DNA from: Thermoplasmatota archaeon
GTDB lineage: Archaea; Thermoplasmatota; Penumbrarchaeia; Penumbrarchaeales; Penumbrarchaeaceae
DNA: 29,797 bases
Direction of reading: 5' to 3'
Assembly (NCBI GenBank): GCA_030600725.1
Contig: JAUVLN010000001.1
Span: 1-29,797 of the forward strand
In this document: in pieces, positions 5,275-28,840 of the stretch
How positions within the stretch are numbered: the stretch's first letter is position 1
Layout: each line of letters starts with the position of its first letter
Made by a program: the position numbers and the translations under genes
Notes under the pieces: model-generated
What the model saw: the letters and a program-made list of their open reading frames with translations, nothing else
Database searches by the model: none
What the model was told of the DNA's origin: nothing

Positions 5275-5320
5275 GGTATTAATACAGGGGCCAAGGGGTT
5301 AGGCGAAAGTACCTGTGGAA

Positions 5321-5596: not shown

Positions 5597-8500
5597 CTAC
5601 TCCTCCAGAAGTTCCTCCAATTCCCCCTCCTCGAAGTCATCCAAAACCTCATCCTTCAAGCTTCCCCTGAAGTCAAGCGGATCGTAGAGGTACCCGCAGT
5701 CGTCGCACTCGTCGAGGCCGCCCCTGATCACGGATCCGCACTCGGGGCACGACCACACGTCGAGGTCCTTGTCGATCATCTCTATCTCCTCGGAGCCTTT
5801 CCTCGAGAGGACCAGGAAAACGACTACCGTGATGAAAAGAAGTAAGACCAGGCCGACGAGTATGATCAATCCCGTGCTTATCTCAGGGGGAGGCGGATCG
5901 GAACCGGGAACAACGGTGATGGTCATGGTGTGGTTCACCGTGACCGTCCCGTCCGATACCCGCAGGGTTACGATGTAAACCCCCGTGATCTTGTATGAAT
6001 ATGACGCCTTCTCCCCCACGTACTCCCTCTGGAGACCGTCCCTGTCGTCGAAATCCCAGATGAACGTAAGTTCATCACCGTCCGGGTCCACGGTCCCCGA
6101 GGCGTCAAAGAGGATCTCGCTCCCGACGATCACATTGGTCTCGGGACCTTTGACCGATATCACAGGTTCACTGTTCTCCACGATCAGGGAGAAATCCGCC
6201 GTTCTGGCTATGAAGTGGCCGTCATCCGCCTCGAAATAATATGTGTGGGAGCCCGGATCAAGGTCAACGGGGGACGATCCGTAGAAGCTGTACCTGATCG
6301 GATCGACGATGCCCTCGGAGGAGAGTCCTATGGGTTCACCCCCGTCGATGACAAGCCTCACCCATATCGGATCCTCCCCGTCCGCGTCCTTGTATTCCAC
6401 CCTGAATTCCATGCCCGCATTCGAATCCGCCTCCCTCACATCGCTTTCCGGCCTGTGCCTCAGGTTGGGGGCGTTGTTATCCATTATCCCCACCGCATAG
6501 TATCCGGCGGTCAATTCCGAGAAGTTCCCGTATCCGGCCTCCTCCACGAGGACCCCACCCGAAGCGGGCGGTGCATCCCAGATCCCATCATGATATCTGT
6601 ACACCTTGATCAGGTCCTCATGCATCCGTATGGGAAACTCCTTACCGGCATGCCCCATCGTTACGTTGATCCACTCGAATAGATAGGAGGCGTAGGTGGG
6701 AAGTGGTGTGAACTCCAGGTGGCATACAAATATCGCGCCGGGAGCTTCCGGGGGCATCTCGGGGATGGTAATATCCACCATGCCCCTGCCGTTGGGTTCC
6801 GATATCCCGAAGGACATCTTCACAATGATCCCATTGTAGAAGTCGGTGAACTCCTCGACTACCCTCTTGAGCAAAGTCACATTTACAGACGCCTCTCCGG
6901 ACGCCCTCATCTCATCGAATACGCGTAGGGTCAGCTTTTTCGTGCCCACTCCGTCAAGGGTCACCTCGGTTAACGCGTCCGGCCCTTCGTAGATCGGAGC
7001 CTCCTCCCCCTCGATATACCAGGAGTAGGTTAGATGGTCCCCGTCACCATCGTATGAGAGGGAGCCGTTCAGCGTTATAGTCTCCTCCGGGAAAGCCATC
7101 AGGGCTTCGCCGGGGGAGGAGATCACCGCAACGGGTGCGAGGTTCCTGTCGCCGATGGATAAAAGCGTACCCCCAGATAGGGAGATGATCATATGCTTCT
7201 TCGAAATGGACGGCTCTCCACGGGGACGGGCATCCAGGGGAAGGGTCCATCTCATCTCGTATCCCCCGCTTCCATCGGGCGAATATGAGGTGACGATCCA
7301 GGGGTCCGCCCCTACGATCGTGTAGAAGGAACTCCCCCCCGATATCGCCCTGGTGATCGGTTCAAGGGGCATAGAGATGTTGGATATTATGGTCCCATTG
7401 TTCAGGTACATGAACAATATCCTGCCATCCACCTGCATGGATATCACACTGGCGGCTTCGGAGACCGCTGGTGGGGCGATCATATCGTAGGGAAGGGGGG
7501 AGGTCCAGATCAGGTCCACGCCAGTGATATTGTCCGGTGCGCCCTCATCCGTATCCTCTGCGTCAACGATCCCATCCTCGTTATCGTCGGGGTTGGAATC
7601 CAGCACCGCAACCACCATGCTGCTCACTGCGATCAGTTTACCGTTAACATACGAAAGGGAGAGTATATCGTCGGAGAAGATGGCGGACAGTTCCATGGTA
7701 TGTATCAGTGATCCGTTGTTTGCATCGATGATCTTTATCATATCGTCATCTGCAATATATATCTCACCGAGTGAGGCTGCAATGGGGCAGTGCTCCGTGC
7801 CCACCGCCACCTTCCACCTGGCCATTCCGTCATCGTCATCGTAAGCGGTCATATTTCCATCCGAGGTGATGACTATCACATTTCCTCCAGCGATCATTAT
7901 AGGGGCCGCTGCAGGGGCGGGAAGGGGTTTCCTCCAGAGGACATCGCCCGCGCTCATCCGGGTGTCCTCCTCCTCCTGATACGCCCCGTCGTTCACACCG
8001 TCCCGGAAACCTATCCAATCAAAGGCCCAGAGCGCCTGATCGTCGCCTATTGCGAACACCTTGTTCGCGAATGCCCAGGACTGCTCGTTCTCCATATGCA
8101 GCGCGGGCCTTCCGATTAGATTGGATGATGCGTTGGTGTAGGTCCAGAGCCTGCCTGTCCCACCGTTATCATCCGTCGATGTGTTCAGGGCCGTGAGGTC
8201 GCCCTGCGGCGTAGTAAAGAATAGGGCCGAACCCACGGCGGATGATGTTCCGGAACCCGCCAGGGAATCAAGCCACAAGGGCTCAACGGGATCGCTCCAC
8301 TCCCCCTCGAGGTCGTAGGACCAGTATGTCCGATTGCTCTGAAGCTCCCCCTGCGACCAACCTGTCCGTCCGGGCCCGCCCCCGGCGGATGTCCAGAAGC
8401 CCGTCAGTATCGGCCTGACGTAGATCTCGATGCTGTCTATATTGTCCTCTGTCGGCGTCACCTTATCCTTGGGTGCTGCCTCTATGATCCGCCCCACTAT

Positions 8501-11564: not shown

Positions 11565-11756
11565 ATGATAATACCGGTAAGATGTTTCACATGCGGCAAG
11601 GTCATAGGCCAGCTATATGACGAGTACAGCCTCAGGGTCAAGGGAGGGGAGGATCCAAAAAAGGTCCTCGACGAACTGGGTCTGGAGAGGTACTGCTGCA
11701 GGCGCATGTTCCTGACACACGTCGACCTTATCGACCAGATCATGCCCTATTCCTGA
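11565..11756 (+). CDS. rpoN: DNA-directed RNA polymerase subunit N (Rpo10)
   Basis: [14 protein letters not shown]...[23 protein letters not shown]. Confidence 0.98.
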
Positions 11757-11885
11757 TCACGATCATAAAGGAAACGTGGGATAGTTGGACCTAACTGAGC
11801 AATCTTCTCGCTCAAGGAAAGGATACAAACTTACCTGCGTTCCGCAGGGGCTTATTGCCTCACTCCATTCGCCAACAAGCCAATT

Positions 11886-11960
11886 GGGGCCGTAGGGTAG
11901 CTTGGTCCATCCTTGTGCCTTGGGGTGGCATAGACTCGAATTCAAATTTCGACGGCCCCA
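11886..11960 (+). tRNA. tRNA-Pro(GGG)
   Basis: Acceptor stem GGGGCCG/CGGCCCC plus A73; D-arm GGGT..TCCT; anticodon arm GTGCC-TTGGGGT-GGCAT; T-arm TCGAA-TTCAAAT-TTCGA. Position after rpoN is typical of archaea. No encoded CCA. Confidence 0.95.
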
Positions 11961-12171
11961 CTACTTCTTCTCATCAATCTTTAATTCGAAGTGGTCCCCG
12001 TCATGGAAATTTGAATTTAAATCTTTCAAGCCCGGAGATTTGATAAACTATAAGTATTAAGCTGTTTCTGGGTTGCCTGGAGATATCGATTTGGCCTATT
12101 CACGAAGACCCAGCAATCGGAGGCGTGGCGATAGACCTCGAATGGATAAGAAATCGACACAGAGGACCCCG

Positions 12172-12411
12172 ATGTTGAACATACATCGTATTGGCTATTT
12201 CAAGTACGATATCAAGGAGCTGATGGCCAGATCGGATATGGAGGAGGATCTGATCGCATCCTTCATTGCCACCCTGACCGCAAAGGCCTCTCGCATGTCG
12301 ATCAAGGATGCAAGGGATTACATAAGGGAGGTGGAGGAGAGGGAGTCCTTCTCCAAGGAAACCGCCGACAGGCTCTGCGCCCTTCTCGACCGGTACTCCA
12401 AGTACAGATGA
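12172..12411 (+). CDS. Small helical hypothetical protein
   Basis: MLNIHRIGYFKYDIKE...LLDRYSKYR; ATG 12172 has GAGG upstream (alternative starts 12142 and 12073). Confidence 0.7.
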   Translation: MLNIHRIGYFKYDIKELMARSDMEEDLIASFIATLTAKASRMSIKDARDYIREVEERESFSKETADRLCALLDRYSKYR

Positions 12412-12547
12412 TGTGCCCCTGTACCGTTCTTTCGCCATAGTTTCATTTTACCCGGGGAAAATTATATATCCCAATAAACCAACTTTACACCCGGTGTCGT
12501 TAATTCGACGGATTGTGATGAGATACACGAAACCCTGAAGAGGAGGA

Positions 12548-12976
12548 ATGATCATGTATGCTCTCGAGATACTGGAGATCCTAAGTGACAAATACTCGCT
12601 TAAGATAGTCCAATCATTATCGGTAGATCCCAGTACCATACCCCAGCTGAGCAGGAAGCTGGATATCCCAATGGCAGCATGCTACAGGAGGGTGAACACG
12701 CTCCTGAACGAGGGGCTCATACAGGAGGACGGGGTCAACCCTCGGACGAGGAGGAAGTCCGTTATCTACAGCACCAACATATTCAAGCTGGACATATCCT
12801 TCGGCTCGGGCAAGCTGTTCATAATCACGTATTTCAAGGACAATACAAGACTTGGAAAGGTCATCGACCTCCGGAGCGAGCCGTACGAGGAGCAGATCAT
12901 CCAGGAGGATCTGATCCACACGATGAAAAGGGATCCGGGGGGCGTCACCATAAGCCGGGAGAACCCCCTACTCTGA
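12548..12976 (+). CDS. Winged-helix transcriptional regulator (ArsR/HTH-like)
   Basis: ILSDKYSLKIV...TIPQLSRKLDIPMAACYRRVNTLLNEGLI...Y; SD GAGGAGG. Confidence 0.8.
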   Translation: MIMYALEILEILSDKYSLKIVQSLSVDPSTIPQLSRKLDIPMAACYRRVNTLLNEGLIQEDGVNPRTRRKSVIYSTNIFKLDISFGSGKLFIITYFKDNTRLGKVIDLRSEPYEEQIIQEDLIHTMKRDPGGVTISRENPLL

Positions 12977-13064
12977 TCCGATCCCGATTATCTTTCATGG
13001 ATCGGTCATCTTTCACATATTCGATGTAATACTTTATCTCAGAGAATTGCACTATGCCCAAAAG

Positions 13065-13592
13065 ATGCCCAGGTATTGCCCCAGGTGTTCGGCCTTTCTG
13101 AGGGACCCGAACGTGAGCATCTGCGACAGATGCGGAGGAATGATCCACGAGGAACTGGAGAGAAAGGAGAGGGTCCAGTCCGCCCTTGTTAGAAAGAGCC
13201 TTCTTGTCAAGGGGCCCTTCTATCCTGTCACCGGTATGAAATGCCCGAAATGCGGGGAGAACGTGGAGGTGCTCTCGAAGGATACCGAGGAGTTCCAGAT
13301 CAAAGGCTCCAAGACGGGCAACGGGCCGGCCGGTGAGGAGTTCGCCCTCTTTCGCGCGAGGATATCCTTTCAGAAATGGAGATGCCAAAAAGGGCACATG
13401 TTCTTCTCACAGTACGATGTTGAGTGGAAGGAGCTCTGCCCCAGATGCAGGAAACCCAACACCCCCTACGGCGACATCGTACGATCCTGTGCTACCTGCG
13501 GCATAATGGTGCCCAACGACCTTTACAGAAAAAAGGACCCGCTGGTCCTGATGGAAGAGAGGGGCTACATCTACGCTCCGGACCTCAGATGA
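13065..13592 (+). CDS. Multi-Zn-ribbon protein
   Basis: Five CxxC motifs (CPRC, CDRC, CPKC, CPRC, CATC) plus CQKGH; start ATG 13065 or TTG 13047. Confidence 0.75.
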   Translation: MPRYCPRCSAFLRDPNVSICDRCGGMIHEELERKERVQSALVRKSLLVKGPFYPVTGMKCPKCGENVEVLSKDTEEFQIKGSKTGNGPAGEEFALFRARISFQKWRCQKGHMFFSQYDVEWKELCPRCRKPNTPYGDIVRSCATCGIMVPNDLYRKKDPLVLMEERGYIYAPDLR

Positions 13593-14201
13593 TCAGAGCG
13601 CCGTAAGGATGGCCCGGTCAGCATCATCCAGCGTTGATATCCCGGACCACTCCCCTTCAGGAGATCCCTCGATCTCACCCACAGATACGAGGGACAGCTT
13701 TCCGGATCCGGGATCCCATATCGGGCGGGGGCCATCAATGATCTCATATCCCACGCCCATCTCTCCGGCTATGCGCCTTAAGGAATCCACGATTGACAGC
13801 TTCTTTTTTATAGTCCCCCTTGGCAGACGCCCGTTCAGGGACAGGACATCTTCTCCCCTCCTTGCCACAAGTACAAGCTCCACACTGACAAGGTTTCCAT
13901 CCAGTGCCTCGGAGACAAGGTCCCTGGCGATCTCGAATTCGGATATCAACTCCCTTGCCAGATCCGTCAATTCCGTCCTGCCCCCTTGCGCCCCTCCCCT
14001 GTGAGATACCACCAACGGGCGGCCCATCTCCTCCTCGAGATGCTTGATAACGCCCCAGGCGTATCTGTAGGACATCGACATGGCGGAGGCGGCCCCGGAC
14101 AGGGAACCCTTCTCATCGATGAGCCTGAGCAGGTCGTATCTCCCCTCCCCGATGACCGTTTTGCCCTTCCTTCCTACGGTTACCTTCGCCCTGGCATCCA
14201 T
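13593..14201 (-). CDS. ModE-family winged-helix regulator with a degenerate Nudix-like C-terminal domain
   Basis: IGEGRYDLLRLIDEKGSLSGAASAMSMSYRYAWGVIKHLE...LV.SHRGGAQGGRTELT is the ModE N-terminal domain. No Mop/TOBE domain. C-terminus contains RLPRGTIKKKLSIVDSLRRIAGEMGV. ATG at 14201. Confidence 0.85.
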   Translation of the reverse strand: MDARAKVTVGRKGKTVIGEGRYDLLRLIDEKGSLSGAASAMSMSYRYAWGVIKHLEEEMGRPLVVSHRGGAQGGRTELTDLARELISEFEIARDLVSEALDGNLVSVELVLVARRGEDVLSLNGRLPRGTIKKKLSIVDSLRRIAGEMGVGYEIIDGPRPIWDPGSGKLSLVSVGEIEGSPEGEWSGISTLDDADRAILTAL

Positions 14202-14234
14202 ATAACCCCATGCCCAGCTAATTATAAGTAACCG

Positions 14235-14262
14235 ACCGATATACCCGAACAAGCATATCGGT
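14235..14262. promoter_or_regulatory. ModE-type operator, just downstream of a TATA box (ATTATAAG, 14221-14228)
   Basis: ACCGATAT-N12-ATATCGGT is a perfect 8-bp inverted repeat, 28 nt in total, in register with the bacterial ModE consensus ATCGNTATATA-N6-TATATANCGAT. Confidence 0.75.
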
Positions 14263-14270
14263 GGGTCCAT

Positions 14271-14915
14271 TTGAAAGATGGCAAGAAGGTAATGGGAAAA
14301 AACATCAAAAAGGTCAGGAGGGCCGTGATCGGCCCCCCTCTGACGCCGATGGTGATCGTCTATCTCTCCCTGTTCGCTGCGATCGGGATGGCCGTAAAGC
14401 AGATAGCGTATCCATTGGCGGCTGTTGCGGCCGCTCCGCTCCTCCTCCCGGTGTCCCCGCTCGTGGCAGGGGCGTATATGATGTGGCTGGTTGCTGGTCG
14501 GGCCATAACCGGCTACAGGTGGAGCGGGACCTTCATGGGGGCGGTACAGGCTTTCGCAGCTTTCCTGCTCATCTTCGGCAGGCACGGTGCATTCAACTTC
14601 CCACTCTATATCGCCACGGGATTGACGGTGGATATCGCATTCATCGTGATGGGCCCGCTGTCAAGGACCATGATCGGTCATGTCGCCGCGACCGCGGTCT
14701 CCTCGGTCGTCGGCACACTTATGGTGGTGGGAGTCGAGCTGGAACTGGGGAACGAGCTGGTCATCGCCTCGGGGCTGATAGCGCTGGGCGGCGGGACGAT
14801 CGGCGGTTTCGCAGCCTATCAAGTGATCACACTCCACGAACGCGTACTTGGGGACAGATATTCGATATCGAAAGATCGTAGGACATTTGCAGAGGGAAAT
14901 AGGGAGGTGACCTGA
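14271..14915 (+). CDS. Probable ECF transporter substrate-specific S component
   Basis: About 200 aa with ~6 hydrophobic helices; AxxxA (AIGMA) in helix 1; same operon as the EcfA-A' and EcfT genes. Start TTG 14271 or ATG 14292. Confidence 0.65.
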   Translation: MKDGKKVMGKNIKKVRRAVIGPPLTPMVIVYLSLFAAIGMAVKQIAYPLAAVAAAPLLLPVSPLVAGAYMMWLVAGRAITGYRWSGTFMGAVQAFAAFLLIFGRHGAFNFPLYIATGLTVDIAFIVMGPLSRTMIGHVAATAVSSVVGTLMVVGVELELGNELVIASGLIALGGGTIGGFAAYQVITLHERVLGDRYSISKDRRTFAEGNREVT

Positions 14916-17114
14916 TTGGTCGAAGATGAATTATCAGAGGAAGAAACCGATAATATACAGGCGACGGAAGAGGAGAACGACGGGGAGATCAAGGAGGACC
15001 TCACCATTCAGGGAGGGGCTTCCCCCTCCGAGGGCCGGGGAGGGAGCCGGATCGCCATCGTCCTGATCTCACTTATGCTCGTGGTCGCCGGCGGCATTGC
15101 CGGGGTTGTTCTGCTAGGCAAGAACCTGGATGATGGCCCGGACGAAATGGATGATACAGAGCCGGAGATCGACATCATTTCGGAGGATGTCGGATACGAC
15201 GGAATACCCTTCAGCTTCGTTGCAGGGGTGACCGGAATGGATCCGGGTGACATGGTAATATCCTGGGATTTCGGGGACGGACAGACAAACGCGGGAACCA
15301 ATGTGGAACACATCTTCGAGGAGACCGGCATATTCACCGTCACGCTGACCATAGAGGACGATGGAGAGGTGGTCCTGCAAACAACGAAGCTGGTGACGGT
15401 TGCACCCGCATCCGGGCCTGCGGAGGGGCTCCTGCCCGACGGGCGCATCCCTGATTGGAACATCGAGTTCACCGGCGACTGCGGTGAGGGAACACTCGCA
15501 CTGCTGGATATCGTAACCAATCCGGATATGATCATGGAGATCAATATCACCCTGAACGGCCAGGAGAGGAGCTTTGTCGGCGTCGAGCTGATGGAGGTCT
15601 TCAACCTGGCGGGGATCAGGTTCGATGCTGATGATTTCACGGTCATCGGTGATTCCACTTACGCCTCCGATGTATTTACAACACTGAGCCTGCCCTTCAA
15701 CGGGGGAAACTCAACCTACCTAATTCTCACCGAGAATGATAGATGGCTTTCAAATACCGATCTGAACAGCACCTACATGCTCATCGGCCCCGGAGGTGAG
15801 GTGGTGACCAACGTACACACCGTCGATATCGACCCCTTCCATCTTGTGATAACCGGCCAGGGCATCCCCGAGGATATCTCGTTGACCATCGACCGGATCC
15901 ACGAGCTTTTCGAGCTCACCGATTACAACGTATCCGACGGGAGGGAGATGTACCGTTTCTCCGGATATCCCCTGTGGCCGATCCTCGAATACGCCTCGAT
16001 ACTGAGGAACGCCACCGAGGTCTCATTCAAAGCGCTGGACGGATACACCGTGGATTTCCCGGTGAACTACATCCACGACAACCCCGAGAGCGATGATCCC
16101 TTTTTCCTCTCGATCAGCGAGGATGGGGTATTTCACGACCGCCTGAAAGGGCCTTACATGCTCGTCACGCCGGATGCGGATTACCTGGATAACCCCGCCC
16201 AGCCCTGGTACAAGCAGTTCTGGGTGAAGCAGGTATCGAGCATCATAGTGGATGCCGACGACGGCCCCGCACCCGACCTTCCCTGGGGCGAGCCCGAGGA
16301 AGCGGCGCTCAACATCACCTGGGATGGTGGCTCATATTCATTCACCTCCTCCGAACTTGCATCGTATTTCGATCTACTCGTTACGGCGGAATGCACCAAG
16401 GTTAAGAGGACGGGGACCACGATAACCGACGTTTACACCGGAATCCCCGTATTTGATCTGCTTGAACTTGCCGGGGCGCCAGCGGTGTACGGGGGGCTCA
16501 CCTTCATCTCATCCGACGGATACGCCAAGACCGCAGATCCCTGGGAGATATATCAGGGAGAGCTTGCAGGTAATGTGACCATGGTTGCCCTTACAGAAGG
16601 GGGGGAGTGGATATCGGAGGAGGACGGAGGCCTGATGATCGCTGGCTCCCCCCTTGCAAGCAAATACTGGGTATCCATGCTATCCGAGATTCATCTGGAG
16701 GAGTGGTCCCTGGAGGTCAACGATGAGGCGATCACCCTGGGCGATCTGAAGTATTCAGGCTACACCTACTCCGGAAACGCCTCGAAGCTGAGGGACGACA
16801 ACACGACGACCAATGTAACGGCAAAGGGTACGATCGTGTACGATCTCCTGGGCTCATATCTCAACCTCACCGGGATGAACAACATGACCTTCTTTTCAGT
16901 GGATGGATCGAACATCACCATCTCCCTGGATGACCTGAAGGACCGGAAGGCCTGGAATGTCTCCGCATTCCTGGCCTGGGAGGTGGATGGTGAAACCCTC
17001 TACTACCACAGCGGCCTGCTGAGGTTGGTCCTGCCCGATGAGATGATCGATGGTGACGACTGGACGGCAGACATGTGGCTTTCAGGCGTATACCGGATCG
17101 AGGTGACCCCTTGA
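14916..17114 (+). CDS. Membrane-anchored protein: PKD domain plus four tandem molybdopterin-oxidoreductase (sulfite-oxidase-fold) like domains
   Basis: N-terminal TM helix; PKD motif ISWDFGDGQ...VEHIFEETGIFTVTLT; four repeats of [FY]xG..L..LL...F.[AS].DGY......G...L..P...W[VL]..V..I.V. Confidence 0.75.
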   Translation: MVEDELSEEETDNIQATEEENDGEIKEDLTIQGGASPSEGRGGSRIAIVLISLMLVVAGGIAGVVLLGKNLDDGPDEMDDTEPEIDIISEDVGYDGIPFSFVAGVTGMDPGDMVISWDFGDGQTNAGTNVEHIFEETGIFTVTLTIEDDGEVVLQTTKLVTVAPASGPAEGLLPDGRIPDWNIEFTGDCGEGTLALLDIVTNPDMIMEINITLNGQERSFVGVELMEVFNLAGIRFDADDFTVIGDSTYASDVFTTLSLPFNGGNSTYLILTENDRWLSNTDLNSTYMLIGPGGEVVTNVHTVDIDPFHLVITGQGIPEDISLTIDRIHELFELTDYNVSDGREMYRFSGYPLWPILEYASILRNATEVSFKALDGYTVDFPVNYIHDNPESDDPFFLSISEDGVFHDRLKGPYMLVTPDADYLDNPAQPWYKQFWVKQVSSIIVDADDGPAPDLPWGEPEEAALNITWDGGSYSFTSSELASYFDLLVTAECTKVKRTGTTITDVYTGIPVFDLLELAGAPAVYGGLTFISSDGYAKTADPWEIYQGELAGNVTMVALTEGGEWISEEDGGLMIAGSPLASKYWVSMLSEIHLEEWSLEVNDEAITLGDLKYSGYTYSGNASKLRDDNTTTNVTAKGTIVYDLLGSYLNLTGMNNMTFFSVDGSNITISLDDLKDRKAWNVSAFLAWEVDGETLYYHSGLLRLVLPDEMIDGDDWTADMWLSGVYRIEVTP

Positions 17115-17773
17115 CGGGACAGCCACATCTGATCAACGTGATCGGGCTCAAGAAGAGCGGGAAGACCACGGTCACCGAGGGCATCGTGGCTTCCCTCGGG
17201 GCAAGGGGATACCGCGTCGGCACCGTCAAGTCCATGGTGCAGTCGGTTTTCTCCCTGGATACGGAGGGTAAGGATACCCATCGACACGGCAGGGCCGGCG
17301 CGGAGTTCACGGTCTCCCTCTCCCTGGGGGAGACCGTCCTGCTTCAGCGCCACGACGGAGGAAGAAGGGGGATCGAGGAGATCTCGCACCTCTTCCCTGA
17401 AGGGACCCAGTACGTCGTATGCGAGGGGCTGGAGGATCCAGGGGCACCGCAGCTTCAGGTGGTCTGCCTGCGCGATCCCGAGGATATGGAGAGAACCGTG
17501 CAGGTGAGGATGGTCGATCATAAGAGCATAATATGCCTTTCGGGCCTGATCGCACTGAAGGGGAAGGGGAAACTCCCCTACCCCCTTTTCAACATAATGG
17601 AGCCGTCCGAAAGGGAGGAGCTTGTGGACCTGATCGTGGAACGGACCGGATGGCCGGACCCGGCCGGCAGGCCATCCGGACCGATTGTTGACCATGGTGA
17701 GGATTGGAGGCCGGGAGTTCTCCCTCCAGGGAAGATTCCCGAGGTCCCCCCCATGATCCACGGAGGTGAATGA
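17111..17773 (+). CDS. mobB: Molybdopterin-guanine dinucleotide biosynthesis protein MobB
   Basis: INVIGLKKSGKTT, GYRVGTVK, DTEGKDTHRHGRAGA and VVCEG motifs; TTG 17111 overlaps the upstream TGA (TTGA) after GAGGTGA. Confidence 0.85.
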   Translation: MTGQPHLINVIGLKKSGKTTVTEGIVASLGARGYRVGTVKSMVQSVFSLDTEGKDTHRHGRAGAEFTVSLSLGETVLLQRHDGGRRGIEEISHLFPEGTQYVVCEGLEDPGAPQLQVVCLRDPEDMERTVQVRMVDHKSIICLSGLIALKGKGKLPYPLFNIMEPSEREELVDLIVERTGWPDPAGRPSGPIVDHGEDWRPGVLPPGKIPEVPPMIHGGE

Positions 17774-17774
17774 T

Positions 17775-19259
17775 GTGAAGTGGGGGCCGACCATCGCCGT
17801 GGTATTGATCATACTGCTGGCAGCAGGGGCCTTTTTGATTTTTACCCTGCAGGATGAGGGAACAGGGGCATCATTGACCGTGCTGACCCCTTCCTCCACA
17901 CACGAGGTGGATCTCGAGGAGGGGGCCGTTCCGATCCGTCGGATCATCAAGAACACGGGGATGACATACGACAGCTCGACCGTCCTTGCCACCACCACGG
18001 ATGGGGATATCCTATCCGTGGGCGGTGGGACCGAGATATCGGTGAGGGACGGGAGGTGCCTGCTGGGAGGCGATAGCGAGCTCCTTGGCCTTGCGTGGGG
18101 GGGCGGGATGGAGATCACAACGACCATGTCGGTGGCGAGGACCGCCCTGTGCTCCCTGAACCTCTCCGCTCCCGGGGTCCCCCTGGTGTGGACGGACGTG
18201 GAGAGGGTGGTGGTCCTCGAGCTGGACGGATTGGGTTGGGGCCTGTACTCGAATACCAATGGGATGCTGAACAACCTCTCAGGAATGGATGCGCTGATGC
18301 CGGCGCTGACCGCATATCCGCCCATCACCAATGTCGGTACAGCCATGGCCGTCACCGGCCTGCCGCCAGCGGAGAACGGGATCAGGGCCCGGAGCGATCA
18401 CACCCTGCTCAAGCCGACCTTCCTGGATGTGGGGGGAATAGAAGGGCATTCCACGGCCTGGATCGAGGGCGACAGCGGTTTCCTCGATGCCGATATGGAG
18501 AACAATGTGGATTCGGACGGGGACGGCACCATAGACGACGAGATCCATGAGGTGGTGATGGAGCACCTGAGGGCCGGGACGGAGATCATCCTCGGCCACT
18601 ATCACTCGATAGATGACGCAGGCCACCAGAGCGGCCCTGAAAGCGCGGAACAGATGGATGCGGTGGGGAATATCGATCGCTATATCGGCGAGGTGGCGTC
18701 GTTCCTTGAGAACGGAACAGACCCCTCAATTCTCATCGTATTCTCGGACCACGGCATGCACGAGGATGACGACGGGCTGGGGGTTCACGGGGAGTTTAGA
18801 CATAAGGATATGTTCTCCATCGTCGGCTATGAACTTCTTGGCGGAGCGGAGCCCCTTCCCGAACCCGGCCTTATCATAGCGGGCGACATTTCAAACCCCG
18901 TTGAAATAACATTAGAGGAGTTCGTGGAACTGCCCTCGGTTGAGGCCTACCTTGTGGTCAAGGGGTCGAAGGGAGATGAGGGTGGAAACTACAGGGGCGT
19001 GGAGCTGTCGACCGTAATGGAACTGTATACCTCCGGAGACGTCGTAACCATTCGGCTCTCGGCAATCGATGGATACACCGTCACACTCCCCGGGCATTAT
19101 GCCGATGAGGGGAGCGGCGTGATCCTTGCATACGAGAAGGACGGCGAGGGCCTCGGAGATGACGGCCCCATCAGGCTGATCGTCCCCCAATCCCTGGCCG
19201 GGGAGTATAACGGCCAGGAGTGCCTCAAGGGCGTGATAAAGCTGGAGGTGAACCGCTGA
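17775..19259 (+). CDS. Secreted alkaline-phosphatase/NPP-superfamily hydrolase fused to a sulfite-oxidase-fold domain
   Basis: Signal anchor; LELDGLG, YPPITNVG..MAVTGLPPAENGI, HYHSIDDAGHQSGP and VFSDHGMH motifs; C-terminal YRGVEL...AIDGY...YEKDG...GPIRLIVP...LKGVIKLEV. GTG 17775 follows GGAGGTGA. Confidence 0.8.
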   Translation: MKWGPTIAVVLIILLAAGAFLIFTLQDEGTGASLTVLTPSSTHEVDLEEGAVPIRRIIKNTGMTYDSSTVLATTTDGDILSVGGGTEISVRDGRCLLGGDSELLGLAWGGGMEITTTMSVARTALCSLNLSAPGVPLVWTDVERVVVLELDGLGWGLYSNTNGMLNNLSGMDALMPALTAYPPITNVGTAMAVTGLPPAENGIRARSDHTLLKPTFLDVGGIEGHSTAWIEGDSGFLDADMENNVDSDGDGTIDDEIHEVVMEHLRAGTEIILGHYHSIDDAGHQSGPESAEQMDAVGNIDRYIGEVASFLENGTDPSILIVFSDHGMHEDDDGLGVHGEFRHKDMFSIVGYELLGGAEPLPEPGLIIAGDISNPVEITLEEFVELPSVEAYLVVKGSKGDEGGNYRGVELSTVMELYTSGDVVTIRLSAIDGYTVTLPGHYADEGSGVILAYEKDGEGLGDDGPIRLIVPQSLAGEYNGQECLKGVIKLEVNR

Positions 19260-19768
19260 AAGCCTTACATCTTCTGGTGCCCGCAGTGGGGATCCTGCTG
19301 ATGGTCGTGGGGACCCTGATATACATGGCATCGGACAGGGTTACCCCCGATGAGGATGACTGGTTCATCCGCGTTTCCGGCATGGTTGGGAACGAGACGG
19401 AGATCCACATGGAGGAGTTCAGGGGGCTGAACACCTCCGTTTTCAGCATGGCGCTCGAGGGCACAGGGGAGGATGGAGAGAAACACGATTACAGGGGAAC
19501 CCCTCTAATGGAGCTGCTCGTCGGACAGGGGTTGTATGAAAATGCCACCGGGGTGGCCGTCCGTGCCGCTGACGGGTACTCCAGATCCTTTTCCATTTCA
19601 GAACTCGATGAGGGCATACTCCTCGTCTACGAGAAGGACGGAAAAGAGCTGAAGGGGAGGTCCGAGGGGGGAGATGGACCCATCCGGCTGATAGTGAGCC
19701 AGGAACATGCGGGAACGTTCAACGCCCAGTACAGCGTGAAGTGGGTCAGCGAGGTGGTGGTCTCATGA
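19256..19768 (+). CDS. Membrane-anchored single sulfite-oxidase-fold (molybdopterin-binding-like) domain protein
   Basis: YRGTPLMELL...AADGYS...LLVYEKDG...GPIRLIV...SVKWVSEVVV; probable CTG start at 19256 overlapping the upstream TGA, SD GGAGGTGA. Confidence 0.75.
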   Translation: MKALHLLVPAVGILLMVVGTLIYMASDRVTPDEDDWFIRVSGMVGNETEIHMEEFRGLNTSVFSMALEGTGEDGEKHDYRGTPLMELLVGQGLYENATGVAVRAADGYSRSFSISELDEGILLVYEKDGKELKGRSEGGDGPIRLIVSQEHAGTFNAQYSVKWVSEVVVS

Positions 19769-20367
19769 GGACCGGGACCCACCTTCTTATCGTCTCCTCC
19801 CTCTCCTTGACCCTGTTGATCTCCATATTCGTCTCGGCCGCATTGACGGATCAAAACGAGGAGGGATGCGACTCGTGCCATGCGGGGAGCCGGCCGGAGG
19901 GCGGATATCAGCTTGAACTGCCTGACATCGTTGTGCTTGCGCCTGACAACGTCTCGTCCGGAGGGTCCTTTCAGCTGCTTGTGAGGATGGTGGAGAGCGA
20001 ACCTTACGACGTGATATCCCCTACAGCATCGCTCGACCTATCCGGCCTCGAGGGCGCGGGGGCGGACAGACTACATGTTGATCTTGAGTTGACGGGCGAA
20101 TATTTCGAGGGCTTCTTCCGGATCCGGGACGTCCACGAGGGGGGGGTCCTGAAGGTGGTCGTTTCATTCACCATACACTACGATCATCCCGACCCGGAGG
20201 ATGGGGATATCGGCACCTACTCGATCGAGAGGTCTCATATGGTCGAGGTTTACGGAGAGGTTCCGGGTGATGAAGAGAGGGGGGATGAGGATACGCCCCT
20301 ACCGCTGATGATCGCGCTTCTCTCCGCTGCGGCCACGGGGGTGATCCTGCGCAGGAAGAGGAGCTAG
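19765..20367 (+). CDS. Secreted CxxCH-containing protein with a C-terminal TM anchor and basic tail
   Basis: Signal peptide, GCDSCH, beta-rich body, LMIALLSAAATGVILRRKRS; ATGA overlap with the upstream gene. Confidence 0.7.
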   Translation: MRTGTHLLIVSSLSLTLLISIFVSAALTDQNEEGCDSCHAGSRPEGGYQLELPDIVVLAPDNVSSGGSFQLLVRMVESEPYDVISPTASLDLSGLEGAGADRLHVDLELTGEYFEGFFRIRDVHEGGVLKVVVSFTIHYDHPDPEDGDIGTYSIERSHMVEVYGEVPGDEERGDEDTPLPLMIALLSAAATGVILRRKRS

Positions 20368-21956
20368 CGGTCTCCCTCCGGGGGATCGGCTTCACCTATC
20401 GTTCAGCCGGCAAAAGCACCCTTTCAGGTCTGGACCTTGAGGTTGAACGGGGGGAATATCTGGGCCTCGCCGGCAGAAGCGGCGGGGGCAAATCCACCCT
20501 GCTCTACATCCTGTCGGGGCTTGCGCCAGGATTGATACGAGGGAGCCTGAAAGGGGAAGGTATCGTTCTGGGAAGAAGGCTCCCTCTCTCCCTCCCCGAC
20601 ATATCAATGGATATCGGGGTTGTGTTCCAATCCCCTGCCGATCTCTTCGTCCAGGGCAGATGCAAGGATGAGATATCATTCTCGCTCCGGTGCAGGGGAG
20701 TAGGTTATGATAAGGCGAATTCTATGGCCGTGCGGGCGGCGGAAGAGCTCGGGATCGCCCATCTGCTGGACCGAAGGAGCAGGGACCTCTCCGGCGGGGA
20801 AAAACAGCTGGTTGCCATTGCATCCTCCCTTGCGGTCAAGCCCAGGGTCCTGATCATGGACGAGCCCTCCTCCCAGCTGGACCCCAGGGGCAGACGGAGA
20901 TTCCAAAACGGCATCGAGAGGATCGGAAGGATCCATCCTGACATCACCATCATACAGATAGAGCAGCGTCTGGACTGCCTTCGTTTCTGCGATCAGGTAG
21001 CGGTCCTGGATGGGGGGAAGATCGTTCACAAGGGCCCCTCCTCCAAGGTATTGATGGGGGACCTGGAGAGGTTTTCCCTGAAGGAGGACCCCATGGTGGG
21101 GGCCTACAGGAAGGCGGTTGAACGGGGGTTCCACGACGGAAGCGGCGTCAGGAGGGGCCTCCTTCGGACCATGGGAGATGCGCTTCGGGGGAAGCTTCCA
21201 CCGGTGGAACACAGGGGGAGGTCCGGCTCTCTCTCCCTCGACCTTGAGGATGTATATTACCGATATCCCGGGTCCGGAGGGGGGATACGGGGATTGAACC
21301 TCTCGTTGAAGGGGATCCGTTCCCTGGCGCTGATGGGTCCCAACGGCTCGGGGAAGTCCACGCTTGGAAAGACGATCGCGTCGCTTATCACCCCGGACAG
21401 GGGCACTGTGATGGTAAATGGAAAGGTGTTCTATCTATTCCAGGAGCCCTCCAACATGTTCTTCTCCGAGACGGTGGAGGATGAGCTGGGGGGACTGGAC
21501 GCGGAGAAGATCGGATTGTTGGAACTGCTTGAACTCTCGGACCTGACGGAGAGGGAGCCGCAGCTTCTCAGCCAGGGCGAGAAACAGAGGCTTGCGATGG
21601 TTCTGGCATTGACATCGGGAAGCGATCTTCTGGTGCTCGACGAGCCCTTCAGGTCCCTGGACGGGGTCATGATACGGAAGGTTAAAGGGCTCCTCAGAGA
21701 GGCGTCCACATCGCCCCACATCATCATAACCAACGACCCCGAGGCGGCCTCCTCCGCGGATCGTATGTTGATCATGAAGGGAGGACGGATCGTCGGAGAT
21801 GGATCTCCGCAGGACCTCCTATCCGACCCGCACATGATGAAGGTCCTCAACTGGCCCATGTACGGTGCGTCCGTCATCGCCCGCAGGTCGGGGATGGGGA
21901 GCGGGGGCAGCTATCATCAGATCAAGCTGGCACTGGATAAGGGGGTGAAGGCCTGA
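20364..21956 (+). CDS. ECF transporter fused double ATPase (EcfA-A')
   Basis: NBD1: GRSGGGKS, VFQ, LSGGEKQ, MDEP. NBD2: GPNGSGKS, LFQ, LSQGEKQ, LDEP. The first Walker A lies upstream of the ORF-track start (20532), so the gene must start earlier; there is no canonical start after the in-frame stop at 20286. Confidence 0.85.
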   Translation, partial: LAVSLRGIGFTYRSAGKSTLSGLDLEVERGEYLGLAGRSGGGKSTLLYILSGLAPGLIRGSLKGEGIVLGRRLPLSLPDISMDIGVVFQSPADLFVQGRCKDEISFSLRCRGVGYDKANSMAVRAAEELGIAHLLDRRSRDLSGGEKQLVAIASSLAVKPRVLIMDEPSSQLDPRGRRRFQNGIERIGRIHPDITIIQIEQRLDCLRFCDQVAVLDGGKIVHKGPSSKVLMGDLERFSLKEDPMVGAYRKAVERGFHDGSGVRRGLLRTMGDALRGKLPPVEHRGRSGSLSLDLEDVYYRYPGSGGGIRGLNLSLKGIRSLALMGPNGSGKSTLGKTIASLITPDRGTVMVNGKVFYLFQEPSNMFFSETVEDELGGLDAEKIGLLELLELSDLTEREPQLLSQGEKQRLAMVLALTSGSDLLVLDEPFRSLDGVMIRKVKGLLREASTSPHIIITNDPEAASSADRMLIMKGGRIVGDGSPQDLLSDPHMMKVLNWPMYGASVIARRSGMGSGGSYHQIKLALDKGVKA

Positions 21957-21964
21957 AGGGGGGC

Positions 21965-22705
21965 TTGAAGGAACTGGATCCCCGCGTGACGTTCATCGGG
22001 GTGATCGTGGTGAGCACGGCCGCATTTGTCCTCGACGGCCCGACAATGCTCCCCCTCCTTCTTATCCTGCTCATCATCTGCATGTACCATTCGGAGGATA
22101 TCCGCAGATACGGAAGGGGCGTTAGGGGGCTTCTGATGATGATGGCCTTCATCGGGTTGGTCCAATCCGTGTATCCGCATGGTGACGGCCTGATCTCTAT
22201 GTCGATCCCGTATGTCGGAGAGTTTTGGGTTTTTTCCGTTATCGGTTTGGAAACAGCTGCGAGGATCATGGGGAGGATCGCCATCCTGGTGATGACCACG
22301 ATGCTCTTTGCATCAACGGTGGATGAGGGTGAGTTCCTGAGGGGGTTGAACAGCTTCAGGATACCCTATCCCGCCATCTTCTCTATCAATCTCGTTCTGC
22401 GTCTGATCCCGGACCTGTCGGAGGATCTGCTGGATATCGAGATGGCCTTCCGGGGTCGGGGCCTGGGCATTAGGAGGGGGTACCTGGGCCGCTGGAGGAA
22501 TTACATCCGTATGATCAAACCGCTCTTTATCAGGCATCTGAGATTGGCCTATCTCATGGGCCTCTCATTGGAGCTGAGGGGGTTTACCGGAAAAAGGCTG
22601 GAAGAACAGGGAAGCGGAAGGGCGCTGAGGCTGTTCGAGAAGGCTATTCTGGCCCTGCTTGTCTCTGGTGAGGTCCTGCTTGTCGCCTGGGGCCTGTTGA
22701 GATGA
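21965..22705 (+). CDS. ecfT: ECF transporter transmembrane T component (EcfT/CbiQ family)
   Basis: LDPRVTF, hydrophobic N-terminal half, LRLIP, AFRGRG and LELRGF coupling-helix motifs. Confidence 0.85.
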   Translation: MKELDPRVTFIGVIVVSTAAFVLDGPTMLPLLLILLIICMYHSEDIRRYGRGVRGLLMMMAFIGLVQSVYPHGDGLISMSIPYVGEFWVFSVIGLETAARIMGRIAILVMTTMLFASTVDEGEFLRGLNSFRIPYPAIFSINLVLRLIPDLSEDLLDIEMAFRGRGLGIRRGYLGRWRNYIRMIKPLFIRHLRLAYLMGLSLELRGFTGKRLEEQGSGRALRLFEKAILALLVSGEVLLVAWGLLR

Positions 22706-23148: not shown

Positions 23149-24834
23149 ATGGAGAAAAAGGTAATGAATAGATGGATCATCGTGGTCGGTGCGATCCTCA
23201 TCCAGCTCTGTCTGGGAGCGATCTATGCCTGGTCGGTGTTCACGCCGCCTCTCGTGGCGCCGCTGCCCGATGAAGATCCAATGGAGGATCTTGGCACGGG
23301 CATAATGATAGACGTGGAGGGTGAACTCGCCGTAGGATCGGAGGAGACGATCATCCTCTCCTTCTCGGAGAACGGAGATCCCTATGCTGGATATTCAAAT
23401 GTATCAGTTCTTATGGAATTGAAGGATAAGAACGGAAATATCGTAAAAAGCGAGAAGATGATCCCCTACATCGGTTACGTTTACGATGAAGGAGAGCCAA
23501 TCACCGCAGGTCCTTACGAGAGTGCTTTGGTTGGAAATACCACAACCATAGAGGCAAAGGTGACCAGGAGCGGTACCTGGCACATGATGATCACAGCCTC
23601 TGATGGAGACAATACCACCACATTTGAGGTCGTGCAGAACGTCGGGACCGGAGAGTTCGGATTCACAAAGACCCAGTCCCAGATGATATTCGCCGCCGGC
23701 CTTTTCACATTTGCACTTTTCACCATTTTCGGTGGAAGGCTTTCGAAGAAATATGGGCCGAGAAAGATGGCCATCGCAGGCGGTATCGTTCTCGGATCAG
23801 GATATATCCTTGCCTCATTTGTCGGCGGATCCTTCATCATGATGCTGCTATCCATCGGCATCCTTGGCGGAGCCGGTATCGGTCTTGCCTATGTCGTCCC
23901 GATCGCAGTGGGAGTCAAATGGTTCCCCGACAAGAAGGGGATGATCTCCGGTCTTGCCGTTGCAGGATTCGGATTTGGGGCGCTTCTCTGGATGAAGCTT
24001 TGCACCGGGTTCGTTTTTGGACCCGTCAAGATCACCGGGGACTGGGGCGGCCTCTATGAGTACTTCGACGTCACACAGGTCTTCCTGATCTACGGCATAG
24101 CCTTTGCAGCGGCCGTTATCGGGGGCGGATTGATCATGAGAAATCCCCCGGAGGGGTGGCTTCCAAAAGGATGGGAACCCCCGGAGGTCAAAAAGGATTC
24201 CGCCACAGGTTCCGTTGAGTTCACCTCATCACAGATGAGAAAGACCCCACAATACTGGATGCTGTTCTTCATGTTCATGGTGGGCGCAGGATCTGGCCTC
24301 ATGGTCATCGGGGTCATCAAATTGTTCGGGATAGATGCGTTGCAGGAATCCGGCAGCACGGCCGCAGAAGCATCCGTCATAGCCGGAACCGCGATGGCGC
24401 TCTTCTACTCGCTGGCAAACGGCATCGGACGTATCGCCTGGGGCCTTGTATCCGACAAGATCGGAAGGAAAATGTCATTGATCCTGATGTTCTCCCTGCA
24501 GGGATTGATGATGCTGGCCTTCTTCTTCATTGGCGGCAACGAATACCTGCTCTATGCTGGAGCTGCGGTGATCGGATTCAACTTTGGAGGGAATTTCGCC
24601 CTGTTCCCTGCGGCAACGGCCGACTTCTTCGGAAATAAGACCGTTGGCCTCAACTACGGATGGGTCTTCCTCTCCTATGGATTCGGCGGTATAATCGGAC
24701 CCATTGCAGGTGGCATCATGGGAGACAACGAGGCGTGGATGTGGGCTTTCATACCCGCGGGCATTCTGCTTCTCGCATGTGCCGGTATCGCCTTCATGCT
24801 CAAGCCTCCAAAGGCCCCCGAGCAGGTAGAGTGA
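23149..24834 (+). CDS. MFS transporter, oxalate/formate antiporter (OFA) family, with a large extracytoplasmic insertion
   Basis: NRWIIVVGAILIQLCLGAIYAWSVF, GGRLSKKYGPR, KWFPDKKGMISGLAVAGFGFG, GRIAWGLVSDKIGR and FPAATADFFG.K..GLNYG motifs. Confidence 0.9.
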   Translation: MEKKVMNRWIIVVGAILIQLCLGAIYAWSVFTPPLVAPLPDEDPMEDLGTGIMIDVEGELAVGSEETIILSFSENGDPYAGYSNVSVLMELKDKNGNIVKSEKMIPYIGYVYDEGEPITAGPYESALVGNTTTIEAKVTRSGTWHMMITASDGDNTTTFEVVQNVGTGEFGFTKTQSQMIFAAGLFTFALFTIFGGRLSKKYGPRKMAIAGGIVLGSGYILASFVGGSFIMMLLSIGILGGAGIGLAYVVPIAVGVKWFPDKKGMISGLAVAGFGFGALLWMKLCTGFVFGPVKITGDWGGLYEYFDVTQVFLIYGIAFAAAVIGGGLIMRNPPEGWLPKGWEPPEVKKDSATGSVEFTSSQMRKTPQYWMLFFMFMVGAGSGLMVIGVIKLFGIDALQESGSTAAEASVIAGTAMALFYSLANGIGRIAWGLVSDKIGRKMSLILMFSLQGLMMLAFFFIGGNEYLLYAGAAVIGFNFGGNFALFPAATADFFGNKTVGLNYGWVFLSYGFGGIIGPIAGGIMGDNEAWMWAFIPAGILLLACAGIAFMLKPPKAPEQVE

Positions 24835-27819: not shown

Positions 27820-28001
27820 CTTGATCGGGCCGATATTATTGTGGTCCCTCTATTACCTTTCCCTTAGGGGGGATGTTTCATAATCGGGTGACGCATACCC
27901 TTGTTACATGTCGGGTGATTCGATTGAAAATGATTATAATTTTTATAATATTCACAAAACACATAGTAGAATTTATAAACCAAGGCGTAGGTTTCTGAAT
28001 A

Positions 28002-28745: not shown

Positions 28746-28840
28746 ATAATGACTACACATACTATCATGTGTCATCACCTCAAATATAAAATGGTTTAGA
28801 TATATTTAATATTTACCTATAAAAAATTGAAGAATGAAGA

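Follow-up and report, generated by a model that had tools for sequence, protein, structure and literature searches.

A candidate energy-coupling factor importer for scavenged molybdopterin-type cofactor in a Thermoplasmatota archaeon

Results

A stretch of 29,797 nucleotides from contig JAUVLN010000001.1 of a Thermoplasmatota archaeon (GenBank assembly GCA_030600725.1), analysed here as a whole and called the window throughout, carries an eight-gene operon that probably encodes a dedicated group I energy-coupling factor (ECF) importer for the scavenging of a molybdopterin-type pyranopterin cofactor, the likeliest cargo being the tungsten or molybdenum cofactor (Wco and Moco, respectively) or a metal-free or trimmed form of it. 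The operon combines genes for a candidate substrate-binding (S) component, for surface proteins with sulfite-oxidase-like (SO-like) domains, one of which is fused to a phosphodiesterase, for MobB, for a CxxCH protein, and for the ATPase and transmembrane components EcfA-A' and EcfT. That an ECF transporter might here serve the scavenging of a Mo/W pterin cofactor had been predicted from the sequence alone. This core idea is upheld by the folds of the proteins, by the recurrence of the gene set, by a cofactor riboswitch, by gene fusions, and by auxotrophy in organisms that possess aldehyde:ferredoxin oxidoreductase (AOR); the re-guanylylation of the imported cofactor, which formed part of the same proposal, is not.

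Cofactor biosynthesis in the host lineage

Six-frame family searches were run over 37 genomes of the GTDB class of the host, 24 of which, including the source genome (G000), belong to the host family. MoaC was found in seven of the 37, the C-terminal domain of MoaA and MoeA in the same seven, and MoaE in two. None of the four was found among the 24 host-family genomes, five of which are 95-97% complete, or in G008, a genome from another family of the class; the same searches also gave matches in four archaeal control genomes. The tungstopterin enzyme AOR is present in 35 of the 37 genomes and in 22 of those of the host family. In the source genome it lies on contig C81 and is the sole pterin enzyme detected. 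The locus contains no gene for ModA, WtpA or TupA, as had been noted originally, and this holds genome-wide for the source genome and for G008, G021, G026 and G029, in none of which WtpA or another Mo/W oxyanion-binding protein was found. The annotated candidates for a canonical tungstate or molybdate transporter turned out to be of other types: the PF13531 matches of the source genome are sulfate-type and SfuA/thiamine-type binding proteins and its PF12849 matches, like those in G029, are PstS. The PF12849 matches in G021 and G026 are of similar size.

The same association was seen at the level of the phylum. In a sample of 401 genomes, a profile of the S-component family matched in 12, which span eight genera and seven families. 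All 12 have AOR and none has MoaC, as compared to 187 of the 389 other genomes with MoaC. Relatedness among the genomes inflates any P value that might be attached to these figures; counted by genera, the exclusion holds in 8/8 against a background of about one half. The SO-like domain does not show such exclusivity with biosynthesis across the class, as its profile also matches SUOX-like proteins of 345-355 amino acids in pathway-bearing genomes, which leaves the S-component family as the clean marker of the system.

Surface proteins with PruR-like domains

A hydropathy scan assigned a single N-terminal hydrophobic anchor to each of the 732-, 497- and 182-amino acid proteins of the operon, so that their binding-type domains and the phosphodiesterase are predicted to lie outside the cell. 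The positions of the SO-like domains were set with a hidden Markov model (HMM) built on the family of the 182-amino acid protein. In the 732-amino acid PKD protein, whose anchor spans residues 40-71, it located domains at residues 321-445, 461-594 and 596-730 and a weak one at 196-252; of the four sulfite-oxidase-fold domains originally predicted for this protein, three are thus clear and the fourth is marginal. In the 497-amino acid protein the domain occupies residues 368-496, C-terminal to the phosphodiesterase.

The assignment to the sulfite oxidase (SUOX) fold was right, but the Mo-binding cysteine is gone and the closest structures are those of PruR proteins. The AlphaFold2 (AF2) model of the 182-amino acid protein (pLDDT 93.5) has its best matches in the PDB among the PruR structures 7KOM (E 1.3e-9), 7KOS, 7KP2 and 7RKB, the last a neopterin complex, with TM-scores by target of 0.72-0.81 (0.81 for 7KOM). 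Sulfite oxidases, SorA and YedY rank below PruR in the Foldseek search (E 1e-7 to 1e-5), and by sequence the family profile likewise picks 7KOM first (E 3.4e-12). In PruR, a periplasmic protein with the SUOX fold, about 170 amino acids and no Mo-binding cysteine, the pterin ring is sandwiched by a Tyr and a Trp and held by an additional Asn hydrogen bond (PMC11194511). The N-x-Y pterin contacts of PruR align with a D-G-Y motif of the family, with Y120 in the position of the Tyr and D118 in that of the Asn. This Asp is invariant over 54 family sequences; a counterpart of Trp160 was not located. Over the same 54 sequences there is no conserved cysteine column, and the Mo-ligand position of the SorA 'CSG' motif is taken by Ser or Gly. 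Taken together, sequence and model indicate that the SO-like domains are non-catalytic modules of the pterin-binding type, whose ligand we infer to be the pterin cofactor.

The 208-amino acid CxxCH protein, by prediction a surface protein too, has a hydrophobic helix at each end (residues 11-36 and 185-204) that would serve as an anchor. It has no match in Pfam or NCBIfam, and its CxxCH and (Y/F)DHPD motifs are kept in four homologues. The gene was seen only in the archaeal genera g1 and g3, and its product could be a c-type haem protein or a thiol- or metal-handling partner of the system.

The ECF transporter and the S component

With an EcfT encoded in the operon, two ECF-type ATPase domains and a small multi-helix S component, the locus is a group I (dedicated) ECF system as far as can be judged from the sequence. 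EcfT matches PF02361 at 85 bits (cut-off 25). The fused ATPase matches TIGR04520 (ECF_ATPase_1; E 1.8e-75) at 254 bits, which is below the equivalog cut-off of 315. The S protein of the window itself scores under the Pfam cut-off for PF09819, but it is homologous to a protein of G008 (E 9e-21, 29% identical) that matches PF09819 at 2.5e-17, and 12 of the 13 members of the S family match PF09819 and no other Pfam family. PF09819 is presumably the family that holds the thiamine S component YkoE. The S-family profile picked no solved chain of the PDB at E <= 1, so YkoE was not matched. Clustering of the S component with a family of unrelated specificity had been named as an outcome that would speak against a pterin cofactor as substrate. 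The protein does fall to PF09819, but as a distant match, and the control elements that accompany it are of the Mo/W type and not a THI box.

In five other Thermoplasmatota genomes (G001, G002, G005, G218 and G268) S component and SO-like domain form a single open reading frame (ORF) of 346-409 amino acids. In four of them this ORF is followed by fused EcfA-A' and EcfT, the contig of G001 showing the fused ORF only. Multi-domain surface proteins are encoded upstream of the fusion ORF in two of these four loci, with up to five PruR-like domains, and after EcfT in a third, and two of the fusion loci contain a kinase-like gene. No other sequence evidence ties the surface domain to the S component as directly as this fusion does, and the 182-amino acid protein of the window, with its single domain, is the likely partner that hands a ligand over to it.

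Recurrence of the gene set and the bacterial riboswitch

Two tests named in the original prediction, conservation of the gene combination elsewhere and Mo/W-linked regulation, both gave positive results. In close relatives, whose S proteins are 60-67% identical to that of the window, all genes are kept in the same chromosomal neighbourhood (a third contig ends inside the ATPase gene), which shows vertical descent only. The locus of G008 (L012), in another family of the class, contains genes for S, SO-like, MobB, phosphodiesterase, SO-like, EcfA, EcfA' and a MocA/MobA-like nucleotidyltransferase. Three more contigs, archaeal-type ones among them, repeat the set, either as S, phosphodiesterase, SO-like and ECF genes or as S, SO-like, MobB, SO-like and EcfA/A', to which a phosphodiesterase may be added. 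A phmmer search with the 182-amino acid protein against 1.84 billion cluster representatives returned 290 matches, most of them about 170 amino acids long, with an anchor and a single domain. Ca. Contubernalis alkaliaceticus, whose genome is complete (CP054699.1), has adjoining tupABC the genes for SO-like, S, SO-like, EcfA, EcfA', EcfT and MobB in this order, followed by an unknown gene, and 43 of 149 genomes of its class have matches, about 18 of them strong. With minor variation, 15 bacterial loci show the order multi-domain SO-like, SO-like, S, phosphodiesterase, SO-like, EcfA, EcfA', EcfT, MobB and a kinase-like gene, whose product has an APH/Bud32-type fold (PF01636, E 5.7e-11). The gene combination is thus conserved in distant archaea and in bacteria, that is over both prokaryotic domains.

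As for regulation, the Mo/W-cofactor riboswitch RF01055 lies directly upstream of the operon and on its strand in 10 bacterial loci, out of 12 whose upstream DNA is intact, and a ModE-type regulator with its candidate operator is found in the window. In the one RF01055 alignment inspected the P3 hairpin is absent; the P3-less type of this riboswitch has been associated with tungsten-cofactor genes by Regulski et al. (PMC2408646). In Ca. Contubernalis a second RF01055 (L021, 3222-3341) precedes the tupABC-type tungstate transporter (3552-5909) directly upstream of the ECF operon. Beside one pterin-type operon (L043) an FMN riboswitch at 5794-5917 precedes a PF12822 S-component gene, an ordinary arrangement for riboflavin uptake.

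The divergent regulator and its candidate operator

A ModE-like regulator divergent from the operon had been predicted, and this proved correct for the DNA-binding domain, the sensor half being a Nudix fold in place of molybdate-binding domains. In the AF2 model of the regulator (pLDDT 82) the N-terminal part, residues 7-110, superposes on E. coli ModE (1B9M, Z 14.2) and on 2IJL (Z 12.7). Residues 107-209 adopt a Nudix fold with Z-scores of 10-12 to many Nudix proteins, including NrtR (3GZ5) and AraR (5BS6). The match to TIGR00637 reaches 74.6 bits and stays below the cut-off of 98.5, no Mop/TOBE molybdate-binding domain was matched in the protein, where a canonical relative (P0184) has TOBE in that place, and the Nudix box is degenerate (RRIAGEMGV). 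A combination of a ModE-type helix-turn-helix (HTH) domain with a Nudix domain was not found described in the literature. The regulator is conserved, as is its candidate operator. A sensor of the Nudix type would point to an effector linked to a nucleoside diphosphate, possibly a dinucleotide form of the cofactor, and not to molybdate.

The intergenic region contains a dyad that lies 7 nt past the TATA-box-like element ATTATAAG, in agreement with the ModE-type operator proposed between the divergent genes. The dyad is kept in two diverged relatives (L001 and L003), whose S proteins are 60-67% identical. In L003 it reads CCGTTAT...ATAACGG, both half-sites having changed together (GATAT/ATATC to GTTAT/ATAAC) so that symmetry is kept. 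It resembles what we take to be the consensus of the E. coli ModE boxes. The TATA-like element is kept as AATATAAGT in L001 and as GATATAAGT in L003 and would serve as the promoter. The dyad lies over the expected transcription start and is a candidate operator to which the regulator may bind.

Phosphodiesterase and MobB

The motifs that supply the metal ligands and the Thr nucleophile of the phosphodiesterase (DG.G, P.T, HFH..D..H, (S/A)DHGMH and G.HG) are kept in 12 of 13 homologues, all but two of which have an N-terminal hydrophobic anchor in a crude hydropathy scan. By these features the 497-amino acid protein is assigned to the alkaline-phosphatase/NPP superfamily as a predicted membrane-anchored ecto-phosphodiesterase/pyrophosphatase, with a captured form of the cofactor as its presumed substrate. 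The bacterial phosphodiesterases, of about 500 amino acids, have a diverged SO-like domain at the N-terminus (hhalign 95.7%, E 8.5e-9) where the archaeon has it at the C-terminus, and fusion to the phosphodiesterase thus occurs in both orders.

MobB matches PF03205 at 65 bits (cut-off 26.6) and TIGR00176 at 71 bits, the latter below the cut-off of 76.2. It contains the Walker A motif GLKKSGKT, has no predicted transmembrane helix and would hence be cytoplasmic, and its probable start is a TTG at 17111 that overlaps the upstream stop codon. MobB had been proposed to feed re-guanylylation of the imported cofactor. This finds no support here: neither a MobA above cut-off nor a bis-molybdopterin guanine dinucleotide (bis-MGD) enzyme of family PF00384 was found in the source genome, in G021 or in G026, and AOR uses its pterin cofactor without a nucleotide. 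G008 has one PF00384 bis-MGD enzyme, and it is this genome that has the nucleotidyltransferase beside its locus.

Layout of the locus and neighbouring genes

The coordinates of the operon, of its regulatory region and of the related loci in other genomes are collected in Table 1. As predicted, the eight genes are co-oriented and mostly abut or overlap: they overlap or stand 0 to about 10 nt apart, the sole exception being the EcfA-A' gene, whose start is unplaced. The family assignments made at the outset from the sequence alone were matched by HMM for the SO-like domains (PF00174), the phosphodiesterase (PF01663) and MobB (PF03205).

Table 1. Features of the operon and of related loci. Coordinates without a locus name refer to the window.
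Feature	Coordinates	Strand	Basis
Operon of eight genes	14271-22705	+	divergent from ModE-type regulator, conserved dyad operator between
Regulator	13593-14201 (209-aa frame starts 14222)	-	TIGR00637 5e-21; PF00126 3e-7
TATA-box-like element AATTATAAGT	14220-14229 (ATTATAAG = 14221-14228)	+	read from sequence
Dyad, candidate operator, CCGATAT-N12-ATATCGG	14236-14261	none	read from sequence
S component, 214 aa (candidate)	14271-14915	+	PF09819 E 1.4e-3; 5-6 hydrophobic helices
PKD and SO-like surface protein, 732 aa	14916-17114	+	PF18911 3.7e-13; PF00174-like repeats
MobB	17075-17773	+	PF03205 6.8e-18
Phosphodiesterase/SO-like fusion, 497 aa	17766-19259	+	PF01663 3.4e-15; C-terminal PF00174-like domain
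Single-domain SO-like protein, 182 aa	19220-19768	+	PF00174 3.2e-12
CxxCH protein, 208 aa	19741-20367	+	no family match
Fused EcfA-A' ATPase	20364-21956 (frame open from 20289)	+	two PF00005 domains; best match ECF_ATPase_1
EcfT	21965-22705	+	PF02361 7.1e-24; TIGR02454 6.4e-13
S/PruR-like fusion ORF	L045 3852-5081		
S/PruR-like fusion ORF	L046 5980-7020		
S/PruR-like fusion ORF	L047 554-1666		
S/PruR-like fusion ORF	L048 4525-5652		
S/PruR-like fusion ORF	L049 4875-6059		
ECF-less AOR operon	L014 (G029:C20) 11650-19470		
ECF-less AOR operon	L015 (G032:C14) 2856-9069		

The flanks of the window are archaeal genes (RNA polymerase subunit N, TiaS and deoxyhypusine synthase), and homologues of the locus proteins carry the database label Thermoplasmata archaeon. 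A gene at 23149-24834 encodes a 561-amino acid transporter of the major facilitator superfamily (MFS) with an N-terminal extension of about 160 amino acids, which in relatives comes after the locus or after MobB. This synteny is kept without an evident functional tie to the locus, and we have left the gene out of the system because it scores as an L-lactate/oxalate-formate transporter (343 bits, cut-off 320). The GC content falls to 0.30-0.37 at positions 1-3000 and 28001-29000, as compared to 0.51-0.60 over most of the window, and these low-GC stretches at both ends may be foreign or mobile DNA.

Discussion

We suggest that the operon works as follows. Membrane-anchored surface proteins with five to six PruR-like domains between them would capture pterin cofactor released by other cells, and the ecto-phosphodiesterase would trim the captured molecule, for instance by cleaving the pyrophosphate of a dinucleotide or by removing a phosphate. 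The 182-amino acid protein would then pass the pterin to the PF09819-type S component, a link that the S/PruR-like fusions of the relatives point to, and EcfA-A' and EcfT would drive its import. In the cytoplasm MobB may receive the cofactor and pass it on to apo-AOR. The function of MobB has never been settled, and the locus offers it a role that can be tested. The ModE-HTH/Nudix regulator, finally, would bind the dyad over the transcription start and repress the operon once a nucleotide-linked effector reports that supply is sufficient, a part that would fall to the cofactor riboswitch in the bacterial operons. The imported species could be the whole W/Mo cofactor, metal-free molybdopterin or a dephosphorylated form. 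Since no MoeA insertase was found in any genome of the host family and no Mo/W oxyanion transporter in the four of these searched for one, the metal probably arrives with the pterin, and the metal-loaded cofactor is the best fit as cargo; the kinase-like gene in bacteria hints instead at import of dephosphorylated pterin.

Several observations weigh against this proposal. Most host-family genomes combine AOR with a lack of biosynthesis and yet possess neither the S component nor EcfT, so the ECF system cannot be their route to the cofactor. In such ECF-less relatives AOR stands in an operon with genes for an anchored one-domain SO-like protein, a two-domain SO-like lipoprotein, a membrane protein of 228-231 amino acids, a ferredoxin, AOR itself, a ThiF-like protein and MobB. 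With respect to a double-zinc-ribbon gene and an MFS gene, this operon occupies the place that the locus has in the window. SO-like proteins and MobB are thereby tied to AOR throughout the family while the membrane step differs, and the AOR operon may represent a second, ECF-independent route for the same cofactor. Its multi-helix membrane protein is conserved and has no family match. We considered the 231-amino acid form as a diverged S component but could not establish homology, as the BLASTP match to one S protein (E 0.003) was not borne out by hhalign (probability 7.6%), and the genomes concerned have no EcfT.

Bacteria pose a further difficulty. MoaC is present in 12 of the 18 module-bearing genomes of the bacterial class, so most of these hosts keep de novo synthesis and the module is not tied to auxotrophy there. 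Absence of MoaC from 6 of the 18, as opposed to 18 of the 131 other genomes of the class, is a weak link, the genomes being related and their completeness unknown. Nor was the kinase-like gene of the bacterial operons found in the source genome with the one archaeal query used. The source genome is itself a metagenome bin, 80% complete, and the other genomes are bins too. Within the window, the EcfA-A' frame has its first ATG, GTG or TTG at 20532, past the Walker A motif. In relatives the gene begins with TTG or ATG overlapping the upstream stop, and the window has CTA at this place (GAGCTAGCG). This could reflect initiation at a non-canonical codon, coupled translation, an inactivating mutation or a mistake in the assembly. 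As to the ligand, Moco is very labile, and a metal-free pterin, once imported, would find no MoeA by which tungsten could be inserted. In the SO-like family the loop that bears the Mo-ligating cysteine of the enzymes is short and cysteine-less, and the truncated pocket of PruR is considered too small for whole Moco (PMC11194511). The SO-like domains may accordingly accommodate no more than the pterin ring of a smaller or modified molecule.

But could the operon import something other than a Mo/W pterin cofactor? One conceivable cargo is the bare metal, whether in the form of tungstate, of molybdate or of a thio- or complexed species, which the SO-like domains would bind as part of an unusual ECF transporter for metals. 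The Mo/W-linked regulation, by the ModE-type regulator here and RF01055 in bacteria, would suit such a transporter, as would the failure to find any other Mo/W oxyanion-binding protein in five genomes and the position of the Ca. Contubernalis operon next to tupABC, itself under a second riboswitch. However, the domains are PruR-like, keep the pterin-contact motif and have no metal-ligating cysteine, and neither the conserved phosphodiesterase nor the bacterial kinase-like protein has a role in metal uptake. Moreover, in hosts without pterin synthesis metal alone would not give active AOR, and the known ECF metal transporters use S components of the CbiM/NikM type, not PF09819 (PMC5037267). We therefore regard import of the bare metal as improbable. 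About equally improbable, in our estimate, is the uptake or sensing of a pterin unrelated to Moco, of the neopterin or monapterin type or a precursor of folate or methanopterin, by which PruR biology would be extended to transport. The closest solved relatives do bind neopterin or monapterin in a pocket considered too small for Moco, and the Mo-ligand loop is short in the SO-like family as well. Such a ligand would not account for a bacterial riboswitch of the Mo/W-cofactor class instead of the folate/THF class, for the constant presence of MobB in the gene set, for the MocA/MobA-like gene adjoining the locus in G008 and the SO-like genes adjoining AOR in relatives, or for the perfect mutual exclusion of S family and MoaC over 12 archaeal genomes.

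Alternatively, the SO-like proteins might be true extracytoplasmic Mo/W enzymes or redox proteins that work with the CxxCH protein, the ECF and MobB genes being there for their maturation or clustered with them incidentally. Matches to PF00174 above the gathering score are what one would expect of such enzymes, and the conserved CxxCH protein, which shows weak matches to the dihaem family NF041762, could act as their c-type haem partner, in the manner of sulfite dehydrogenases. We nevertheless think this very improbable, because none of the 54 family members has the Mo-ligand cysteine, because the proteins have N-terminal anchors, no twin-arginine motif evident by eye and no catalytic or dimerisation domain, and because their hosts cannot make the cofactor. 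In addition, the ECF transporters that have been characterised are importers, and the CxxCH gene is missing from the bacterial and from most archaeal versions of the locus. This leaves the scavenging of a Mo/W pterin cofactor as the reading that we prefer.

The Mo/W cofactor is taught to be made by every organism that uses it and to be too unstable to share. The original prediction knew of no characterised ECF system for molybdopterin, and a full-text literature search likewise found no description of a prokaryotic Moco or molybdopterin transporter or of an ECF system tied to the Moco riboswitch, turning up only the dietary uptake of Moco in C. elegans and one passing speculation about the type 11 secretion system (T11SS). 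New in the present work are the archaeal form of the system, the ModE-HTH/Nudix regulator with its operator, the archaeal S-domain fusions, the ECF-less AOR variant and the loss of the whole pathway in archaeal carriers. The wider picture would be that of prokaryotes with dedicated, energy-driven uptake of ready-made W/Mo cofactor, in which whole archaeal lineages have dropped biosynthesis, insertase and oxyanion transporters, PruR-like domains break the ECF rule, and a new type of regulator may sense the dinucleotide form; we give this picture as a whole an even chance. If it is true, the Mo/W cofactor would be a traded public good in anoxic communities, as are B12 and thiamine, and the absence of moa genes from a genome would no longer mean the absence of Mo/W enzymes. 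In practical terms, heterologous enzyme production could draw on the system as a candidate Moco/Wco transporter, and its surface domains could be used as stable modules for pterin binding. The natural auxotrophy of the archaea, which is missing in the bacterial cases, makes the hypothesis directly testable.

Comparison with known systems

The individual parts of the system have known relatives from which they differ in characteristic ways. Like PruR, the SO-like domains are small extracytoplasmic SUOX-fold domains with an N/D-x-Y motif and without the Mo-ligating cysteine, and PruR is their best PDB match by both structure and sequence. Different from PruR, however, they are multiplied, membrane-anchored and fused to a phosphodiesterase or an S component, they lack the Pro-Trp motif that PruR has at the cysteine position, and they are tied to MobB, AOR and Mo/W-cofactor regulators. 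PruR of A. tumefaciens (Atu3496) signals together with the c-di-GMP enzyme DcpA in Proteobacteria, with monapterin or neopterin as its ligand (PMC11194511), whereas no gene for a DcpA (GGDEF-EAL) partner was seen in any locus examined. The regulator resembles ModE in the sequence and fold of its N-terminal domain but has no Mop/TOBE domains. Its C-terminal Nudix fold is shared with NrtR and AraR, where it is used as a non-catalytic sensor.

Among ECF systems the nearest parallel is YkoEDC of Bacillus, a THI-box-controlled group I transporter with YkoE as its thiamine-binding S component (PMC5037267). Both have an operon-encoded S component, presumably of the same family PF09819, an EcfT of their own and paired or fused ATPases, and the bacterial versions of the present system are likewise under a riboswitch for the end-product cofactor. 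The S component is however only a distant relative, control is exerted by a Mo/W-cofactor riboswitch or a ModE-type regulator and not by a THI box, and surface binding domains, an ecto-phosphodiesterase and MobB come in addition. ECF transporters are by definition devoid of an extracytoplasmic binding protein, whereas here PruR-like domains regularly accompany the S component and in some genomes share one protein with it. This departure from the definition is the main mechanistic novelty of the system.

As regards the use of a ready-made Moco made by other cells, Warnhoff and co-workers describe its uptake from the diet by C. elegans (PMC7849362, PMC9793310). The archaeal operon would resemble this case in that the cofactor comes from other cells, but the two have no homology and no shared parts. 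A closer analogy is offered by vitamin salvage, in which a compound is trimmed outside the cell, imported and rebuilt inside, as in the riboswitch-controlled uptake by ThiT and RibU and in the salvage of NAD and nicotinamide riboside (NR) with a surface nucleotidase. As in these systems, a surface hydrolase would be combined with an importer and cytoplasmic handling proteins under repression by the end-product cofactor. The class of cofactor, by contrast, would be new for prokaryotic uptake, and the partners differ as well, these being MobB and, in bacteria and some archaea, the Bud32/APH-like kinase.

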